A DNA stretch of 64,000 nt from positions 60,637 through 124,636 of the IMG/VR virus record IMGVR_UViG_3300027498_000003. The stretch is one strand, 5' to 3'. Position 1 is the first letter of the stretch; each line of letters starts with the position of its first letter. Shown piece by piece: positions 15,818 to 62,363 of the stretch. The notes under the pieces are model-generated. The model was not told where the DNA came from. It saw only the letters and a program-made list of their open reading frames with translations, and did no database searches. The translations under genes and the position numbers were made by a program. This DNA is from a virus.

Positions 15818-18800
15818 TTAAGAACACGAAGCTGATAAGCTCCAGAATGTGTTTGTATTACATTCTTGGCACCCCGTACACCCTCCACTTATTGATATAC
15901 TCACAGTGTCTCCCGCATTTACGGATAAGGTAGTAGTAAAGACGCCTGCAGGAGGATAATCAAATTCCAAAATTCCGCAATTCGCTGTGCACAGCGTTCC
16001 TATGCCGTCTGAACTTATACATCCACTGGTAATTGGCGTACCACCATTGACGCTTATCGTTATACTGTCAGGCGTACCTGTTGTGTCGAATGATAACGAT
16101 AAAGTGCCATTACCGCTCGCTGTGAATGTCTGGCTAATGCTTCCAGATGATCCACTAAATGCTGTACTTATGTCTTGGCAAGTGTCATTTAGGCTTCCGA
16201 TACTTCCTACGCATGTGCACTCTGCGTTTAAAGATTGCCCACTCGGGCACGTTGCTGTTCTTAGTATTTTCGCACCTCCCTCGTCTTCGCAACAGCAAGG
16301 TGCATTAGATGAGGTACTGTCGCATACTGGACTATTACCACATGGATCATCAACTACACAAGTAGTTCCATTACACGTAGACCCTGCGGCGCATCCTGTA
16401 CCTACTACAGTCCAGCATGGGTTACCGCTATCATCTACACACTCTGAATTTGAATCAGTAGAAAATGTGGTTGATCCGCATGCCACGCCTGACGGGCTTG
16501 GCGCATTGGACGGGCCACAAGCTCCTGAACAATTCTGGCTACATGGATTAGGGCTACAAGTCGAGTTATCCCCTTGATAAACTCCTGCGGTCCCATTTAT
16601 GGTCTGCAAACAGTCTGCCTGTGTGACCCCTTCTGTACAGCTCTCTCCTCTACAACAAGCTCCTGTAGGATCTCCTCCTGTATCACAATCTCTGACAACT
16701 ACATTACTAACTTTAAATTTGCAATCACTGTTATTCGGATCTATAAATGTTACTGAATATATATTAGCACTTGGATTAGTAGTAATACTCTGAGTAGTAA
16801 ATGTATTTCCATTATATTCCCAAAGGTAATTATATCCGGACGTAGCCGTTAATGTGGCTGTCTCGTTATTGTTGGTGCAAATAGGGGTTGGGCTTTGGGT
16901 CACTCCTACTCCCATAAAATCAGGACAATCTGAGTTGCAGAATTCTGAGACAGTAACAAATAGTTTTTTTCCGCAGCCTTGTATATTGTCATTGGTAATT
17001 GTCACTATGTAGTTGCCATCCGAAGTAGCTGTTATGCTTTGCTGATTCGTAGCGCCGCTTATAGTGCCTCCACTCGATGTTGACCAGCTGTAGCTGGTAA
17101 CAACACCTGAATGTGCTACACTTAATATTATACTCCCATTACCATCAAAACATGCTTGATCTGGTCCTGATATCTTCGCATCATCCAAGTTACAATCTGT
17201 GCTGGCGCATTCTGGGCATGAGCCCTCTTTACAATCAGTAGCTGTACTTTCTTGGCAGTCTGCTAAACTATTAAACTGTTGAGAGCATTCCGGCCCATTC
17301 TGCCCTTGTATACACCCAAATGAAGGAGCAGACGAGCAGTAATCATTAGTGTCAGTTACCGTGACTGTTACTGAGCAATTCGCGGCCAAACCATTCACAC
17401 TTACTGGAATAGTAAAGGATTGACCTACATCTGCACAATTAAAAGTTTGTGGAGGTATACTTAACGAAGTACATACCCCCGTAGCTTTGGCAATTAGATT
17501 TTGAGTTCTAAATGCGACGTTTTTATCAGAAGTTATATTTGCTGTATAACTTAATTCTAATTCATTTGAGCAGTTATTAGGGTCACATTCTGCTTGAGTA
17601 TCTTTTATCTCGCAATAGCACCCAGATTGGGTATAGGTCTCGTTTACTCCGTAGAAAGTATTACATGCTGAGCAATCTGTCCCTAATACACTACCAGTGG
17701 GGTTCTGTGCGCATGTAACGTAATCATTACAACTTGTTCCATCAGAATTTGGCTGAGTACATCCTGTGCAGTTTAAAGGTTCAGGCAGTATAGTTACTTC
17801 GTCTGTAGTTGTACAGAACTCACCATTATCTACAATTATTGTGTAATTCCCTGCAGGAAGATTTGAAGCCGAAGATGTACCAACAACAGAATTAGAGCTA
17901 TCTAATATTTGGAAATTTACTCCCCAAGTTGCTGTAACATTTATAGAACTGTTAGGTAAATTAGAAGATGTCACGTTTATAGATGTATCCGTAAGCTCGC
18001 ATGTGTTATTGCCCGTTTCGCATCCTGTAGATTTAGTACCTACTATTTGTGCTGTTGTTTGGTTACCATTAGCGTCGCAGCAAGTTACGTTCTGAGTTCC
18101 ACAATAATTATTTGTATTTATACTACTGCACAGGATGAAATTACAAGGATCTGGTATATCTTCGCAGCAATTTCCGCAACCATTAGGTGCTTGTACTTCT
18201 GATCCATTACAGGTAACATTGCCGCAATCCGGGCCTATTGGGTCGCATCCCAAATCTACAATTACTACATCTTGATCATTCTGACATACCCTCTTTCTGC
18301 ATCTTAAACAGTTTTCAGTAGTAGTCTCCAGCACTGCAGGGCCGCAAGTGTCTGGAATATCAGTAACGATACATTCGCAATTCACATAAAAACCAGCGTC
18401 GCCGCTTGTAACAGTACATGGGTCTCCGTTATCAATACCATTAGGACAGTCTGTAGTAGGGATAATTGGGTCATCTGCTATATCGCAATTCCCTGTAGCT
18501 ATTCCTGAAAATTCACACCCATTAGCATCTGTAACCTTCCATGGTATAGATGTAGTCGCAGCAGGTAGTGATACATTAAATTTACGTGTCCTGCTATTGC
18601 GCACAAAAGGGAAAGCTTGGTTACTTTGAGGATCAAATACCGCGTAAGTTATAGGTAGAGTACCGCCAGATACACTTACTTCATACGACCTAATCGAATA
18701 CACACTACCTGCTATGCCTTTTGTACAATCTGAAGCCGGCTCTGTGAACGCAAAAGTAGCCGATATGTCGCAGCAAGATGCAGTTGATGGTAAACCGAAG

Positions 18801-26894: not shown

Positions 26895-29800
26895 TTAGTA
26901 TGCCCAGTTTATTTCTATCTCTGAGAACGAAGTTATTGTTGCTGCCTCTCCTGTTAATGGATTGACAACATCAGCAGTTATGTTAATTGGGTATATGCCT
27001 GGGCCTGGGAAACATACGACATTATCTAATCTCACTCTACGTCTTGAATCATCTCCTATTGTCGCGCCGTCTGTAGATATGTCTCCTGTATTACCTGCAC
27101 CACCGATCGTGTATGTTGAATTTGTAATTTGCCAATCATTTAAATTGCTATTACCATTGTTTTCAGCAATCCACAATTCCAATCTGTCTAAACAAAAATC
27201 ATTACAAGAAGTGGGGGTGTAGTTCACTCTTCTCGCCTCTACGCCTATAGCAACTCTGTCAGGACCTACTCCGTAGTAAGCCTCTCTATACAAATCTATT
27301 TTACCAATTAAACCATTAATTCTATCATTATCAAACTGCTCTATACAACCTGCGCCTGTGTTACTTTGTATATCAACTATACGTCCTACAGTTTCAATAA
27401 AAACTGGTGCAAGAGGAGGGAAAGGGCTTGCCGTAGTTTGATAATTTTCACAACCTGTTATACTGTAATTCGATAATAAGTTGTCGGCAGCTCCATTAAC
27501 CCCTTCAGTATTTATAAAGACATGTATAGGATCACCGGCAACTGGGTATTCCCTAATTTCTGCATCAAAATTTGATGTTTTACCAAGGGGTATTTTGCAT
27601 ATTTCAGATATATTGTCAGGATTAACTGACTCTATAGGACACGTTGTCGATCCTTGTCCCCCCACAAAAATGTGAGTTTCAAGCTCTTGTGCAAATGTTC
27701 TGCTATCTAATGCCCTTGTAGTGATTGGCGTATTACCGTTTATGCTACTTTGGCCTGTCGCAGCGTATATGTTGCCTGTTGCATTAGCCCAATCTCTCTT
27801 ATTGAAAGAGAAAGATAATCCATTTCCAAAATCTCCTGTTGGAGAGAAGTTAGTTATAGATAAGCCATCTGTCCTATCTGAGGCATAATCTGCGCTACAA
27901 AGAGTCCCTGTTATAGTTTCCCATAAAGTGCCCTCCTCTAAAAACACTTCAAATCTAAATGGCTCTCCGCAAGCTACTAAAGCTCCTGAAGGTGCTTTTA
28001 CATATGATTGACTTCCTGTCGCCGCCACTCCTGTAGTTCCGTTGGTTTCCTCCCAAGCTAACCTTGCCTCTGGATTTTGATTTTCATTAAGTACATTTAT
28101 ATCTGCATCTGAAGTAGAGTTAGGTCCGTTGACTCCATCATTCCCCACTGCTGTTACGACATTTGGTATAAACTCAAATCCTGTTGAATCTGGATCAACT
28201 TGCACAACTACGTCTATTGATTCACAATCTCCCGGAGCTAATGGCCCTGCAAAAGTCCATGTTAATCTAGTTCCTAACGGGTCTATAGCCGTTGTTACAT
28301 TTCCTCCTGCTGCCGTTCCTCCATCATCTGAAGTATAGATCAAAGGTGATTTCAATACATCTGAAGTAGTTATATCTGTTATTGGTCCTGAAGCTGCTGG
28401 CTCATTACACACGGTTATTGTATAAGTAAATGTATCTCCTGCAGCAACTGTACCAGCCTTTACATCATTTGTCTTATCTACTCTTATTTCTCCTATAGGA
28501 GGTGGTGTGAACGTAAAGAGGTCAGTTACTGTGTTTGATATAGTACCGTCTGGGCATTTAATACATGTCTGGATTCCCTCAGCGATTGCTTTACTACAAT
28601 CGGTAGGTCTAACATAAGCTTTTCCGTCGCCTGTTAACGCTACTAACTCTAAATTAGTAGGATTGTCTATGCCTTTTAACACATAGGTTCCATTTCCACT
28701 TGATATTAAATTACCATCTTCATCATAAGTTTCACAAGGGGTGTCATTTGTACTTAAATCAAATACTTGAACTCCACAATTAGACTCCATCTCAAAAGTT
28801 TCACCTGCCTCAGACGTTATAGTTGTTGTACATGCTGGTACGCACCATTCTGCTACGGTTCCGTCTACTGCTGTGTGTGTGAGTGTTTTTGTTCCATCCT
28901 CATTATTTACTACTTCTACTGAATCTGTTCCTACACAAGCTATGACATCTTCGCAAGAAACAAACGTCCCTCCATCACTTCCTATAGTTGCCAAGTTATC
29001 TTCATCAGTTGATGTTACTGTAATATCTACTGTATGATTCGCTGGTCCACTTTGATTTACCCCTGTTGTATCCCCATCTGTAGTAACTACTAAATCAGTT
29101 TCTGGTGGTACTGTAAAAGTGGTTTTGTTCCCTTGAGGGTCTGTTATTATTAAAGTAGTCGGATCGTTAGGGTCTATTATTACGCAACATCCGTTAACTA
29201 TGAATGGATCCGCCGGTGACCCTGTGCCTGTTATAACTACGTTATTTCCTTGTTGTATCGCGGTGACAATTGGGTACACGCTCTCTACTCCCTCCGCATC
29301 AATTATGGTAAGCTCACCTGTAGTTGGGTCGAAACTGCTGCAGCATCCATTTACAATGTAAGGATCTGCAGATGTACCAGTTCCTGTTATCGTAATGTTA
29401 TTGCCCGGTGTAACTGGGGTTATATTGCCTACTGGCACGCATACCACGTTCTCTGTAACTATTGATCCAGTGATGTTATCTACTAAATCAAAGCAGATCT
29501 GAGGATTTGCCGGGTCTGAGTTATCTGGCTTAGGTACGCATTTTAGATCGGTATCTAAGTCTCTTAAACATTCTCTTAATTCTGTTAGGCTAATTCCCTT
29601 TATCTCTACGCTACATGCTATGTCACATCCTGAGCAATCTGTAAATTCCAGGTTTGTCTCTATCTTAAACGGCGCGAGAGAGTCATCTTCTACAATGAAG
29701 CACACCTCTAAAGTTTCCTCGGCACCACAATCCACATCGATATTTCTCCACTCGGTCGTTCCTTGCGTATACGATCCTACTGAAGGATTACTAACTGTGC

Positions 29801-48569: not shown

Positions 48570-49676
48570 ATGGTAACAAAAGTTCACAAAACATATCAAT
48601 TTAAACTGAAACCAAACAAAACTCAAGCAAATATATTCCATCAATGGCTTGGGACTTGTAGGTATCTTTATAACTCGGCCTTAGAGCACCGAATATCTTA
48701 CTTCAAAGATACTGGTGAAGGCGTGTCCAAGTATGACCAATATAACGAGCTGCCTCAAATAAAAAGAGAACTTCCATTCGTAGCCAAGGTTTATTCCGAT
48801 GTTCTTCAAGAAGTCTTAGATAGAATAGATAAGTCATACAAGTTATTTTTCAAAGGTGGCGGATTTCCTAAATTCAAAAATAAATATAGTTACAACTCCT
48901 TCACTTACAAAAGAAACTACAAAATAAATGAAAATAAAGTCAAACTACCTAAGATTGGGTGGGTTAAGTTCTTTAACTCAAGACCAATAAAAGGTAAACC
49001 CAAAACAGCAACATTAATATTCAAAAATAATAGTTGGTTTATATCAATTGTATGTGAGCAAGAGATACAATCTAAACCTATTGACGATAGCCAAGCAGTC
49101 GGAATAGATGTAGGTATTGCTAAGTTTGCATATTTGTCTGATGGATCTTTTATAGAGTCTCCTTATTTTTTAGAGCCTAATTTGGGGAAGTTAAGGCTTC
49201 TGCAAAGAAAGTTATCTAGGCAAAAGAAAGGTTCTAACTCTATAGAGAAAACTAAAAGACAAATTTCAAAACTACACAACAAGATAAAGAACCAACGAAA
49301 GGACTTTCTACACAAGGTATCCACTAACATTGAGCAGTTTTATTCTTCTTGTTATGTTGAGGATTTGAAGATTAGTAATATGACTAAACTTAACTCCACC
49401 CTTTCAAGAAGGATGTTAGATAATGGTTTTTACTCATTTAGGCTTATGCTTGAGTATAAGTTTAAACACAATAGTAAACATTTTCTATCAGTCAACCCAG
49501 CCTACACTTCTCAAATGTGCTCAAGTTGCGGCGCTGTGGATAAGAAATCTAGACTTTCCCAAAGCGAATACCTTTGTACTAACTGCGGATTTGTGGATAA
49601 TAGTGATCTGAATGCTGCAAAAAATATAAGAGCTAAGGGCATTAGCTTTGGAACAAAACGTAAGGTGTTAGCCTAA
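48570..49676 (+). CDS. tnpB: RNA-guided endonuclease TnpB, 368 aa, catalytic triad intact
   Basis: N-terminal KTYQFKLKPN; RuvC-I VGIDVGI, RuvC-II YVEDL, zinc finger CSSC...CTNC, RuvC-III DLNAAKNI. Confidence 0.95.
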   Translation: MVTKVHKTYQFKLKPNKTQANIFHQWLGTCRYLYNSALEHRISYFKDTGEGVSKYDQYNELPQIKRELPFVAKVYSDVLQEVLDRIDKSYKLFFKGGGFPKFKNKYSYNSFTYKRNYKINENKVKLPKIGWVKFFNSRPIKGKPKTATLIFKNNSWFISIVCEQEIQSKPIDDSQAVGIDVGIAKFAYLSDGSFIESPYFLEPNLGKLRLLQRKLSRQKKGSNSIEKTKRQISKLHNKIKNQRKDFLHKVSTNIEQFYSSCYVEDLKISNMTKLNSTLSRRMLDNGFYSFRLMLEYKFKHNSKHFLSVNPAYTSQMCSSCGAVDKKSRLSQSEYLCTNCGFVDNSDLNAAKNIRAKGISFGTKRKVLA

Positions 49677-51494: not shown

Positions 51495-52028
51495 ATGAGA
51501 GAAGTTGAATGTTTTGTTGGAATAGATCCTGGTAAAAGTCCAGGGTTATGCCTTATAGACATAAGAGGAGATATAATTAGTACTAAGCTTTTGAAAGATA
51601 AGAAAGGGGAGATGCGTCATCTTGAGCTTTTTGAATGGGTAAAATTAAGTTCTTATGGCGCCAAAGCAGCCATGGAGCTGCCTCACAGTGTATTCAGCGC
51701 CTCTTCTAAGTCCAATTTTCAGTTTGGGCTATCCGTCGGCGCATGCAAACAAAGCTTAATATCCACGTTTCCCAAGGGGAGAGTTAAATTCCCACAACCT
51801 AAAGAGTGGCAAAAACTAATCCTTATAGATAATGACATTGTTATTAAGAAAGGCAAGAAGGACACAAAGAGTACCGCATTTGCTGCCGCGAAACGGATAT
51901 TAGGCAATAGATGGGATTATAGTGTATTTTTACCTACAGAAAGGAGCAGTGTGGCTAATCATAATTTAATAGACGCCTATCTCATAGCAGAATACTGCCG
52001 AATTACTCATATAAATTTACCATTATGA
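51495..52028 (+). CDS. RuvC-like Holliday junction resolvase
   Basis: VGIDPGKS.GL, AMEL, FQFG...G, P.EWQK and NLIDAYLIAEY. Confidence 0.85.
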   Translation: MREVECFVGIDPGKSPGLCLIDIRGDIISTKLLKDKKGEMRHLELFEWVKLSSYGAKAAMELPHSVFSASSKSNFQFGLSVGACKQSLISTFPKGRVKFPQPKEWQKLILIDNDIVIKKGKKDTKSTAFAAAKRILGNRWDYSVFLPTERSSVANHNLIDAYLIAEYCRITHINLPL

Positions 52029-52828
52029 CAAAGCAATTTTTATTCGGATTTTTAGTAGCCTCATTATTGTCAGCGGGATATGTAGCGCTGAAGTACATAA
52101 GTGACGAGGAAATGGCTGTTGATATTGATCAGGTATTTAAGCCGTGCACCATTTTGACGGTGCCTAACGCTGTATCTGATACTATCCCTCAGTACTCGCA
52201 TATTAAAGGGAAGATGTTACCTCCAGGCACATATACCTACGCGACTCGGAACAGTACGGGGCGTAATAAACTTTGGATAGATTTAGGGTTTGATATCTAT
52301 GAGTTAATTACAGATAGTCTTCATTTCGAAAGGATAGATGTTTGGGAAGATGCTGATATTAAGATCGCGGCCAATGATGCCGGCGGATCTCGAGCATACA
52401 CGGGCACTGATATCTTCTTAATCGATGCATATGATCCACAGCAACCTACCATGTGGTTAGGGAAACCAATATACCATGCTTACGACCTATATGTACTTAT
52501 ACATGAGCTCGGTCATAATTTAGGCCTTGCCCACGAGCATCCTAACCCTAAAAATGGAATAAAATGGAGACGAAAGCTGATGTACGATGAAGTATTCTCC
52601 AAGTCTCCATACAATTGGACCTGGGAGCGAGCTAATGTCTGGTTTGATGGATTTGATCCTGAAAAATATGAACTATCCGAATTTGACGCGGAAAGTGCTT
52701 GGTTATACTATTACCCATGCAAATACACATTGGATAGTATAGGATGCGGAAAAATAAATTACTTCTTCTCTCGAGGAGACATAAAAGGGCTCCAGTCCGA
52801 TTATGGTAACCCTTTTAAAGATAACTAA
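52025..52828 (+). CDS. Membrane-anchored or secreted zinc metallopeptidase (metzincin, astacin/myroilysin-like)
   Basis: HELGHNLGLAHEH (HExxHxxGxxH) followed by PNP..GIKW; N-terminal hydrophobic anchor. Confidence 0.85.
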   Translation: MTKQFLFGFLVASLLSAGYVALKYISDEEMAVDIDQVFKPCTILTVPNAVSDTIPQYSHIKGKMLPPGTYTYATRNSTGRNKLWIDLGFDIYELITDSLHFERIDVWEDADIKIAANDAGGSRAYTGTDIFLIDAYDPQQPTMWLGKPIYHAYDLYVLIHELGHNLGLAHEHPNPKNGIKWRRKLMYDEVFSKSPYNWTWERANVWFDGFDPEKYELSEFDAESAWLYYYPCKYTLDSIGCGKINYFFSRGDIKGLQSDYGNPFKDN

Positions 52829-52831
52829 ATA

Positions 52832-53884
52832 ATGAAAAAAGACTTTATAGATGGAGAGATAAGCAAATTAGATACTATTATATCGGAGCTCGATATAACT
52901 GAGAGCTTGGAGCTGTATACTCATTTAGTTGATTTGAGATCAAAGTTCACAAGTCAAAGACTGTTAGAATCCACCAAAGATCCAGTAGCTGTGCGAGAAG
53001 ACTTTGCTCCTATTAAAAACAGCATAGAAGAAGCTGATTGGTGGGACGAAGTAAATAGAGCCGTGGGCCTTAGTTTGGATAAAGATAAAGTGTCACACAC
53101 AGCGGAAGATTTCGATAAAGAGGTGGATCTATCCAATATGAGATCAATTGTATTTCGAAATTATGGGTTAACACCAGATGCGGATATTGGCCCTTTTATT
53201 ACAAAAAATATAGGTGAAGATTCTTTTGGGTATGAACTAGAAGAAGATTCTATATTAGGATACAAAGGTGAGGTAATTTTTTTCGATATAACTGATGAGT
53301 ATAAAAATAAGCTGAAAATAACGACTGAATCTGCACGTAGAATAAGGGCAGAGTTGGGGAAGAGGGAGTTCAAAGAATCAAATGATATAGACTCTGATAA
53401 GTTAGATAATTTATTTGATACTGCCTGTAAAACGTTGGAAGAGAAGATGAGTTGGGATAAGCTGTATCAGTCTAGGGAAGAGGCAATTAGAGGAACCAGT
53501 GGGGAATTACCAGGGCTGCTACAGATGGAATTAAATAAAAACTTAGATAAATTGCCTGAATGGTATAACTATGATCCGTTGCCCTATTTTCTCGAGCTTA
53601 AAAAGTCGAACATACATGGGTACGGTGTATTTGCCAAAACTGATATTTCTTTAATTTTACATACAAAATATATAACTCATATAGTTACCACGCATGGGGT
53701 TTTGAGGACGCCCTTAGGTGGATATATAAACCACTCTGCCACTCCAAACTGTGAGTTTAGTAAGTATGGAGATATTTTTTATTTAAGGCTTATAGATAAG
53801 GAACGTATAAAAAAAGGAGATGAAATAACCGTAAACTATCATGATCAAGAGGATATTTGTAAACCAGACAATGAATGCACATGA
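52832..53884 (+). CDS. Fusion protein: acidic N-terminal region plus C-terminal SET (lysine methyltransferase) domain, 350 aa
   Basis: KSNIHGYGVFA, GGYINHS..PNC and IKKGDEITVNY motifs. Confidence 0.85.
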   Translation: MKKDFIDGEISKLDTIISELDITESLELYTHLVDLRSKFTSQRLLESTKDPVAVREDFAPIKNSIEEADWWDEVNRAVGLSLDKDKVSHTAEDFDKEVDLSNMRSIVFRNYGLTPDADIGPFITKNIGEDSFGYELEEDSILGYKGEVIFFDITDEYKNKLKITTESARRIRAELGKREFKESNDIDSDKLDNLFDTACKTLEEKMSWDKLYQSREEAIRGTSGELPGLLQMELNKNLDKLPEWYNYDPLPYFLELKKSNIHGYGVFAKTDISLILHTKYITHIVTTHGVLRTPLGGYINHSATPNCEFSKYGDIFYLRLIDKERIKKGDEITVNYHDQEDICKPDNECT

Positions 53885-55479: not shown

Positions 55480-56016
55480 ATGATCACCAATACATTTAGA
55501 CTCTATATTATCGTTCATTTGTTATGGATGTGTACCTATACAACGGCGCTTTCGCAGCAATGCGTTTCCATAGATACTGTATTTAACTCTTTCACTGCAG
55601 AAGTAAATGAAGATGTAGATATGATTAGAGGGGCGAAAGAGGTTTATCCTCAATACTCGCCGACGTTATTTTCTGATGATCTGCCTTTAGACACTACTTA
55701 CACTGCAACTCGTATAGAGACTTTACCAAATGGCAGAATCATTTACCTTGTAGTATATGAAACAGTAATATGCTCCCTCCCTCCTGGCTTTTTCTTTAAC
55801 GGAGATACTATATCTACTGTAGATCAAGATTCAATCATGCCGCCAGTTCTGATAGACGTAGGTGGGCCTATACAGCCTGAAGAGCCAATACAAGGTGAGA
55901 ATATCCCTACAATGGGGCAATGGGGCCTAATATGTTTAGGGCTTCTGCTTACTATATTTGCAGTAGTTGCTATTAAGCAAAAAGATATCCTAATAGTAAA
56001 ACCAAACAAGATATGA
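55480..56016 (+). CDS. Exported surface protein with an IPTL-CTERM (IPTxxxWG) sorting domain, 178 aa
   Basis: Signal-peptide-like N-terminus ending ALS|QQ; C-terminal ENIPTMGQWGLICLGLLLTIFAVVAIKQK (motif, TM helix, basic tail). Confidence 0.85.
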   Translation: MITNTFRLYIIVHLLWMCTYTTALSQQCVSIDTVFNSFTAEVNEDVDMIRGAKEVYPQYSPTLFSDDLPLDTTYTATRIETLPNGRIIYLVVYETVICSLPPGFFFNGDTISTVDQDSIMPPVLIDVGGPIQPEEPIQGENIPTMGQWGLICLGLLLTIFAVVAIKQKDILIVKPNKI

Positions 56017-56231: not shown

Positions 56232-56385
56232 AGGTTTAAGTCCTTTCGTGGCCTCTATATGGGGATGATGCAATAGAATGCTATGTAATCTGATTACAGT
56301 GGAAGATCGTAACTTCCCATTCCCACAATTTAATGCCCTTCAGCTTTTAATTAGGCTAAGGGCTTTTTTATTCTTAAATTGTAGT

Positions 56386-56787
56386 ATGAATAGATTAGAT
56401 TTCATAAAGACAACACTATCCGCGCCGATCGCTTTCGTATTAGGCATCTTAGGAATTAAAAAACCCAAAGAGCCTTATATTAGAGGCAATGATGAGGTTT
56501 ACGCATTTGATGTTAAATGGAATTATGTAGATGGAACTAAGACGCCGGTTTACCATTTAGACCCTCTCGACACGCAAGCCATGGAAGAAGGGTGGACCTT
56601 GCATGAAGTTATGGGACATGGCGGGCTTTCTGGAGGTATGAAATACCATAAAGATTTAGATATGGGTATTAAATATTATTTAGATAGCGAAGACTGGGTA
56701 GTTAAGCACGGTACAGCTACTGTTGTTTTTTCTAAAACTGCAGGCTTTATCAAAGTGCAAGATTGGCCTTTATTTAATGGATTATAA
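56386..56787 (+). CDS. Hypothetical protein with a Tat-like N-terminus (probable start MNRLDFIK; track ORF starts at 56278)
   Basis: NRLDFIK followed by a hydrophobic stretch. Confidence 0.5.
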   Translation: MNRLDFIKTTLSAPIAFVLGILGIKKPKEPYIRGNDEVYAFDVKWNYVDGTKTPVYHLDPLDTQAMEEGWTLHEVMGHGGLSGGMKYHKDLDMGIKYYLDSEDWVVKHGTATVVFSKTAGFIKVQDWPLFNGL

Positions 56788-62188: not shown

Positions 62189-62285
62189 CTTAAATCCCCA
62201 GATATACTCCCCCCACAAGGTAATAGGGCTAAAAAATAAACATTCCTAAAAGTAAGAATGCCTATTGATGTTAATTGAAAAATTT

Positions 62286-62357
62286 GGAGGTATAGCACGG
62301 TGGCTAATGCGCTGGACTGCAGATCTCGTCATGAGGGTTCAATTCCCCCTACCTCCA
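62286..62357 (+). tRNA. tRNA-Cys (GCA), no encoded CCA
   Basis: Acceptor GGAGGTA/TACCTCC, D-arm GCA..TGC, anticodon loop CTGCAGA, T-arm GAGGG-TTCAATT-CCCCC. Confidence 0.85.
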
Positions 62358-62363
62358 TTGTAA

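Follow-up and report, generated by a model that had tools for sequence, protein, structure and literature searches.

A protein of a marine crAss-like phage carries an IPTL-type sorting tail and is a candidate substrate of a host exosortase

IPTL-CTERM proteins (TIGR04174, PF18203) are predicted to be the substrates of exosortase H (XrtH, TIGR04177). To our knowledge, exosortase H and its IPTL substrates are known from comparative genomics only; we know of no experimental study of XrtH and of no XrtH substrate for which processing of the tail has been shown, nor do we know of an organism in which the chemistry and the destination of XrtH products have been established. A gene whose product seems to end in such a tail lies in a 64,000-nucleotide stretch of viral DNA (referred to here as the window), which is part of a 126,546-bp (126.5-kb) IMG/VR virus record with an estimated completeness of 74%. 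The question raised by this locus is whether a phage can address one of its own proteins to the sorting system of its host, as the initial annotation of this DNA had proposed.

The ORF was found in the sequence with every element that had been listed for it (Table 1), and it is a genuine gene. Its ATG is the first start codon past an in-frame stop and follows the stop of the upstream gene by 51 nt, while its TGA stop (56014-56016) shares nucleotides with the start codon of the following gene (ATGA at 56013-56016). A variant with 99% nucleotide identity to the ORF was present in a different marine sample (L058, a contig of 1.85 kb). The two copies differ by 4 synonymous and 2 non-synonymous changes; the signal and the tail are unchanged, and both amino-acid changes fall in the passenger. 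The ratio of synonymous to non-synonymous differences and the invariant tail would be consistent with purifying selection on the ORF, and were counted in its favour. In the variant, the gene caller placed the start at M17, which would remove the signal, but the upstream ATG is intact there.

Table 1. Location of the ORF and its parts in the window, and of IPTL-CTERM genes in three other viral records
Feature	Location	Strand	Remarks
Whole ORF	55480..56016	+	178 codons and TGA stop; 178 aa
Predicted signal peptide, residues 1-25	55480..55554	+	Read from the sequence; signal peptidase I (SPase I) cut predicted before Q26
Passenger, residues 26-117	55555..55830	+	No recognised fold or family
Pro/Glu-rich linker, residues 118-141	55831..55902	+	Read from the sequence
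Signature motif IPTMGQWG, residues 142-149	55903..55926	+	TIGR04174 and PF18203 alignments begin here
Transmembrane helix, residues 150-165	55927..55974	+	16 hydrophobic residues; gap-free alignment with host tails
Basic cluster KQK, residues 166-168, and 10-residue cytoplasmic extension, residues 169-178	55975..56013	+	Host tails similar
IPTL-CTERM genes of IMG/VR proviruses G581, G583 and G582	L053:2234-4099, L056:2230-4090 and L054:1704-4114		CI-like repressor or integrase fragment adjoining

The record encodes a large terminase (TerL), a portal protein and a major head protein (MCP). The nearest relatives of its TerL, at 24-26% identity, come from Cellulophaga phage phi14:2, crAss-like gut phages and Flavobacterium phages. 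The source is a marine crAss-like phage, the DNA of which was found in three marine metagenome studies; among the sequencing runs containing this DNA, no RNA run was listed. Close relatives of the TerL or the ORF were not found in IMG/VR. There is no integrase in the record (126.5 kb, 74% complete), and the phage is apparently lytic. The ORF is located outside the structural block, in a co-directional block on the + strand with a GC content of 35-37%, where its neighbours include an RNase H gene, a gene for a RuvC-like resolvase, one for a repair-like protein and numerous small genes without assigned function.

Several other genes of the window were also recorded. In a 350-aa protein (52832-53884, + strand), Pfam recognised a lysine methyltransferase domain of the SET type (PF00856; its 36.2 bits exceed the cut-off), which is unusual for a crAss-like phage, and a 267-aa protein (52025-52828, + strand) gave a weak match to matrixin/reprolysin-type zinc metalloproteases (22.3 bits, with a cut-off of 24). 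Two genes downstream of the ORF, the product of 56278-56787 (+ strand), which had no family match, shows a membrane helix behind an internal Met (..TTLSAPIAFVLGILGI-KKPK); this may be a second envelope protein of the same operon. The window also carries a TnpB gene of an IS200/IS605 element (48570-49676, + strand) and a single tRNA-Cys (GCA) gene (62285-62358, + strand).

This setting bears on whether the gene matters to the phage at all, as it could be a neutral hitch-hiker or a decaying bacterial capture without a role for the phage. It is found in a block of small accessory genes of no assigned function beside the IS200/IS605 insertion, and orthologues in other phages were not found. However, its reading frame is unbroken in both samples, between which most differences are synonymous, its signal, motif, helix and basic cluster are all intact, and its passenger has no bacterial homologue at all. 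The DNA of the tail is identical to that of any sampled host tail at no more than 56 of 81 nucleotides (69%), so the idea that the phage took its tail from a host in recent times was rejected. A gene of no use to the phage is, in our judgement, a very improbable explanation.

At the N-terminus, a signal peptide with cleavage before Gln, the Bacteroidota pattern, had been described, and this description agrees with the n-h-c layout seen here. An n-region with R7 is followed by a hydrophobic core (L8-Y20) and the c-region T-T-A-L-S, after which the mature protein would begin at Q26-Q27 (..ALS/QQ, where the slash marks the predicted cut). In Bacteroidota, Gln follows the SPase I cut, which is known as the Q-rule (PMC5837995, PMC10653852), and A-L-S/Q fits both SPase I and this rule. 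The same layout of signal and Gln was seen in 9 of the 11 complete host IPTL proteins. Outside the window, the record contains two more ORFs for exported proteins (G000:C1:24723-25154, + strand, and 27867-28742, - strand), one with a textbook Bacteroidota signal and Gln (..NIGYS/QTD) and the other with a lipoprotein-like signal (..VALSSC), and both support a Bacteroidota host. The Q-rule signals and the relatives of the TerL together point to a host in the Bacteroidota.

At the C-terminus, the motif IPTMGQWG, the transmembrane helix and KQK are all present as claimed in the initial annotation, and the helix was modelled as a helix with the highest pLDDT of the AF2 model. The description had lacked the 10 residues after KQK, which are normal for this tail subclass: host tails continue for 6-15 residues beyond K/R-Q/E-K/R, and the distance from motif to stop is 37 residues in the phage tail and 29-41 residues in the host tails. 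The proposal had been made to depend on a match to TIGR04174. On the protein, this model gave 20.5 bits, the same as its curated cut-off of 20.5, and in a six-frame search of the 126.5-kb record it gave this locus as its sole match (23.3 bits, E 1.7e-5). With PF18203, the score was 20.2 bits, 0.6 under the gathering score of 20.8. As undoubted host tails of the same subclass reach just 22-35 bits in Pfam, the borderline score with generic models is therefore a property of the subclass and not of the phage copy.

A tail HMM specific for Bacteroidota was built from 23 host tails with the phage sequence left out, together with a version restricted to the QWG subclass. Run against 2408 six-frame ORFs, the first gave the phage ORF 49.1 bits (E 4e-14) and the second 52.6 bits (E 2.7e-15), with the next best ORF at 7 bits, so the match lies well outside the range of chance. 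Across all six frames, the window has a single instance of [IV]PT[LM]xxWG. Host tails of this style have [VI]PT[LM][GS][QE]WG, an L/I-rich helix with a conserved LIF, and K/R-Q/E-K/R; the phage tail aligns without gaps to the tails of two Bacteroidota genomes (G467 and G328), with 19 of 27 residues identical, and P, T, W and G of the motif are invariant in an alignment of the phage tail with 16 Bacteroidota tails (alignment A1). The identification as an IPTL-CTERM tail was thus upheld, and judged by its sequence the tail is a genuine IPTL-type sorting domain of the Bacteroidota subclass. The ORF has the tripartite C-terminal layout of the IPTL-CTERM family (motif, helix and basic cluster). The presence of XrtH in the same genome, another feature of this family, was not observed in the phage record; a phage gene could not show it because the enzyme must be that of the host. 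The window had been noted to contain no sortase gene, and this can be extended to the entire 126.5-kb record (74% complete), in which no exosortase-family gene was found.

Other C-terminal targeting domains were also considered. A midcut-by-XrtH protein (NF033207) was rejected, with a score of 24.8 bits where 45 are needed, a match limited to profile positions 31-62, which covers the same stretch as the TIGR04174 match, and 10 residues after the basic cluster. A protein of the 'midcut' type was observed directly beside an XrtH-like gene (L014, G108:C3); it has VPALSQWG, a helix, RRQQ and then ~80 more residues, so that its motif is 108 residues ahead of the stop. Cargo of the type IX secretion system (T9SS) was rejected, as the ORF had no match to the T9SS C-terminal domain (TIGR04183), a beta-sandwich of about 70-100 residues. 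The sole match of the phage record to this Por_Secre_tail-like model is a weak internal one within a 1774-aa fibre gene (window 17816-17989, - strand; 17.5 bits, below the cut-off), which is probably just an Ig-like sandwich.

It should be considered whether the tail is a C-terminal membrane anchor and nothing else. The product would then remain in the inner membrane as a bitopic protein that exposes a domain to the periplasm, not processed by an exosortase, which could act in inner-membrane exclusion, in lysis timing or in envelope disruption of the u-spanin kind. A signal at the N-terminus and a helix at the C-terminus are also the layout of the unimolecular spanin T1 gp11, the next-but-one gene encodes an N-terminal membrane helix, XrtH is absent from most Bacteroidota, and the phage seems to be lytic. 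However, a plain anchor needs no IPTxxxWG, and here motif and helix together match the host sorting subclass with 49-53 bits. A unimolecular spanin of the T1 gp11 type was rejected despite the C-terminal helix: L-W-M-C18, with Met at position -1, is a poor lipobox, and A-L-S/Q fits SPase I. No lysis gene (endolysin or holin) was found near the ORF. An anchor without processing is therefore regarded as rather unlikely, and a sorting tail as the preferred reading.

Between signal and tail, the initial annotation had placed a passenger of ~115 aa and a Pro-rich linker, which was borne out by a mature part of 116 residues (passenger and linker) ahead of the motif. This part is acidic (pI 4.05) and contains two Cys (C28 and C98). 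When the passenger was compared with 1.84 billion (1.84e9) representatives by phmmer, only the phage's own variant (P0001) was retrieved, and this variant was also the sole match in a 5.8-billion word search. There was no match in Pfam, NCBIfam or PHROG, nothing usable in the ESM Atlas and no similarity to host IPTL proteins by blastp. A single-sequence AF2 model (pLDDT 44.6) was unusable save for two terminal helices, with the passenger below 50. The passenger is an orphan. Most host substrates with the same tail subclass are likewise small and belong to no family; an ice-binding-like domain was seen in one of them and a P-domain in another.

An orphan passenger with no detectable fold, joined to a tail close to the consensus, could also be explained by a decoy, in which the perfect tail occupies or jams the host exosortase and leaves the host's IPTL surface proteins unsorted during infection, with the passenger itself unimportant. 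The fact that both amino-acid changes between the variants are in the passenger fits with this. However, a signal and a 116-residue passenger region with two Cys and a linker exceed the needs of a decoy, host substrates are equally small orphans, and we know of no precedent. We consider a decoy very improbable and favour a protein that is itself delivered.

For such a delivery, a matching enzyme has to be available in the host. TIGR04174 tails were found in 11 of 401 sampled Bacteroidota species (~3%), and a search with TIGR04177 found an exosortase-family gene in 124 of the 401. The eight best matches of this search were classified as two XrtX, one passing the XrtH cut-off, four with XrtH as the best model and one tie between XrtX and XrtH; the exosortase of genome G144 scored 86.6 bits for XrtH, the cut-off being 86. 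IPTL tails are present in six of these eight genomes, and several of them directly adjoin the exosortase. The two XrtX genomes have no IPTL tails; their enzymes (L011 in G297 and L013 in G201) are XrtX (NF046081, 201 and 186 bits) in place of XrtH.

Two of the genomes with tails among the closest to that of the phage, G144 and G328, belong to the same GTDB family. In this family, tails were found in 25 of 151 sampled genomes (17%) and an XrtH-like gene in 35 (at E <= 1e-12; 9 of them above the curated cut-off). Tails and XrtH-like genes occur together in 23 genomes, tails alone in 2, XrtH-like genes alone in 12 and neither in 114 (Fisher p = 2.4e-16), so that 23 of the 25 tail-carrying genomes have an XrtH-like exosortase, and many tail genes are within ~1 kb of the exosortase gene. 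The family is not that of the Chitinophagaceae MAG G001, in which 0 of 41 genomes had tails, and this assignment was rejected. The right phylum therefore does contain a matching XrtH-type enzyme, carried by a minority of its members. That the host carries xrtH, as had been expected, is possible, a matching system being present in ~3% of the Bacteroidota species sampled and in 17% of the genomes of one family.

Attempts to find this host directly gave no candidate. The relatives of the IS200/IS605 TnpB are 30-34% identical and scattered, among species-representative genomes, over archaea, Cyanobacteriota, Bacilli and Bacteroidota, and gave no clue. When five IPTL-rich genomes were searched for DNA identity and CRISPR spacers with 20 kb of phage DNA, one exact match of 24 nt was seen, in G328; it is in a coding region without repeats and is attributed to chance. 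With the same amount of phage DNA, nothing was found in 111 genomes of the G328 family, in a weak search that scored 2 candidates per genome. The GC content of the phage (36-42%) is close to that of the host loci sampled in the IPTL-tailed Bacteroidota family (31-38%), which was counted in favour of a Bacteroidota host.

Taken as a sorting substrate, the protein could follow a simple route. The infected cell would make the phage accessory protein, which would be exported by Sec, and SPase I would cut before Gln26, the new N-terminus then probably being cyclised to pyroglutamate, as in Bacteroidota. The C-terminal helix would hold the protein briefly in the inner membrane with KQK in the cytoplasm, until an exosortase-H-type enzyme of the host recognises IPTMGQWG at the outer face of the membrane and removes the helix. 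An acidic passenger of 12-13 kDa would then reach the envelope or the cell surface, in the manner of the IPTL-tailed proteins of the host itself. We have moderate confidence that the ORF product takes this route, from Sec export and trimming ahead of Gln26 to anchoring by the helix and release or transfer at IPTMGQWG, and so is a true substrate that the phage supplies to an XrtH-type exosortase of its host; cleavage and transfer by XrtH are presumed here, as is a phage host among the XrtH-positive minority of Bacteroidota. Counting against this route, tails were found in just 11 of the 401 sampled Bacteroidota species, so that most candidate hosts lack the system. The PF18203 score under its threshold, the failure to find related phages or orthologues that would attest to long-term conservation of the tail, and the lack of a listed RNA run also count against it.

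Such a protein could serve to alter the surface of the infected cell, perhaps to stop further phages from adsorbing (superinfection exclusion) or to save progeny from being lost to infected cells and debris. A strictly lytic phage would leave little time for a surface protein, and exclusion roles are therefore less obvious than they are for prophage morons; surface remodelling or exclusion is our preferred guess. The initial annotation had suggested that the phage uses the sorting system of the host to anchor its own protein on the surface of the infected cell, for receptor masking, superinfection exclusion or adhesion. This reading is partly supported: the use of the sorting system is favoured by the genuine tail, the Q-rule signal, a phage without an exosortase and XrtH genes that co-occur with tails and adjoin them, whereas cleavage, surface localisation, receptor masking and exclusion are pure conjecture.

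If the tail serves phages in this way, it might be expected in other viruses, and a survey of viral databases for CTERM tails had been suggested. IMG/VR was scanned with the pattern [VI]PT[LM][GS][QE]WG, and nine of the 25 stretches that matched were confirmed as tails. These nine other records are all of high GC (57-67%), with E/Q-WG and a tail of the RMRRR type. Of the five that were checked, four are proviruses by record class, with 86-100% completeness, and three of the five contain a portal gene. In two records the IPTL gene is directly downstream of a CI-like repressor (HTH and S24 peptidase), and in a third it is beside an integrase fragment. A non-specific endonuclease and a deaminase-domain protein come next in one of these loci (L056), and a HATPase_c_3 protein and a C5 methylase in another (L053). 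Positions beside a repressor or integrase are typical of lysogenic-conversion genes, and the provirus IPTL region looks like a moron or defence region. A tblastn search with the tail in 50,697 GenBank phage records found none, with the low-complexity filter on, which may mask the helix.

With nine more records, two of them with the gene just downstream of a CI-like repressor, the theme therefore recurs, and the phage IPTL tail is not a unique case. Together, the ORF and these nine records suggest a wider, unnoticed class of phage morons. A more general proposal is that phages of widely differing kinds, a lytic crAss-like phage infecting marine Bacteroidota as well as temperate phages from high-GC bacteria in which the gene adjoins the CI repressor, join host-specific IPTL tails to passengers without relatives and have XrtH deliver these proteins into the envelope of the host, for superinfection exclusion or surface remodelling. 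Phage-borne exosortase substrates would then be a recurrent and undescribed class of accessory genes, and the tail subclass possibly a precise marker of host range; we offer this as a tentative idea, possible but on balance doubtful.

A phage substrate with a tail close to the consensus is of interest because it is independent evidence for the tail as a portable, functional address label, and the ORF product is a compact natural test substrate of ~13 kDa with one motif. If the tail works, the possible hosts of an uncultured marine crAss-like phage would shrink from a phylum to the small percentage of Bacteroidota that have XrtH. From its sequence, the product is probably a case of a phage using the sorting machinery of its host.

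Compared with the IPTL-CTERM family, the ORF has the same order of predicted signal, unrelated passenger, IPT[LM]xxWG, transmembrane helix and C-terminal basic cluster, and the tails closest to its own are the [VI]PT[LM][GS]QWG..LIF tails of XrtH-bearing Bacteroidota. It differs in that its genome is a phage without an exosortase, its Pfam score is just under the threshold and its passenger has no relatives. An example of the family is the Methylomirabilis S-layer protein, described in the one paper in which 'IPTL-CTERM' was found in the literature (PMC8671808). In the class of function proposed, the ORF resembles other small phage proteins of the envelope that exploit a targeting pathway of the host and alter the susceptibility of the cell. 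T5 Llp and Cor of phi80/N15 are receptor-blocking phage lipoproteins, and T4 Imm and Sp are inner-membrane exclusion proteins. Unlike the ORF, these depend on the lipoprotein (Lol) pathway or on plain membrane insertion, have no exosortase tag and share no sequence similarity with it.

Phages of Porphyromonas gingivalis encode signal-peptide proteins that obey the Bacteroidetes Q-rule (PMC10367356), and they are like the ORF in having exported proteins tuned to Gln after the SPase I cut. These phages are temperate, and no C-terminal sorting tail was reported for them (neither 'sortase' nor 'T9SS' is in the text). Searches of the literature for exosortase with phage and PEP-CTERM with prophage found no description of a phage-encoded exosortase substrate, in line with the earlier remark that no phage use of exosortases had been described. 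The nearest case is HOG10, a PEP-CTERM-domain protein of the virus-like IME1 elements of Dehalococcoides, mentioned in one sentence (bioRxiv 10.64898/2026.09.15.751708). Like the ORF product, HOG10 is reported to combine an origin in a mobile, virus-like element with an exosortase-type C-terminal domain, but it has a PEP-CTERM tail, comes from another host phylum and type of element, and no link to a sorting enzyme is discussed for it.

The closest parallel in principle is SasX, a prophage-borne LPXTG surface protein of staphylococci and a substrate of the host sortase A (PMC7047976, PMC6048232). Like the ORF, it is a phage gene with a tripartite C-terminal signal (motif, helix and basic residues) for a host sorting enzyme, the sorting of the ORF product being predicted. 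SasX belongs to a sortase, a monoderm host and a temperate phage and is a known virulence or colonisation factor, whereas the ORF combines an exosortase tag with a probable diderm Bacteroidota host and an apparently lytic crAss-like phage. Host-sorted phage proteins as such are already known from SasX, and what is new is a putative host-sorted phage accessory protein by the exosortase route, by which the principle of LPXTG proteins in Gram-positive prophages would be extended to diderm bacteria and the exosortase family.
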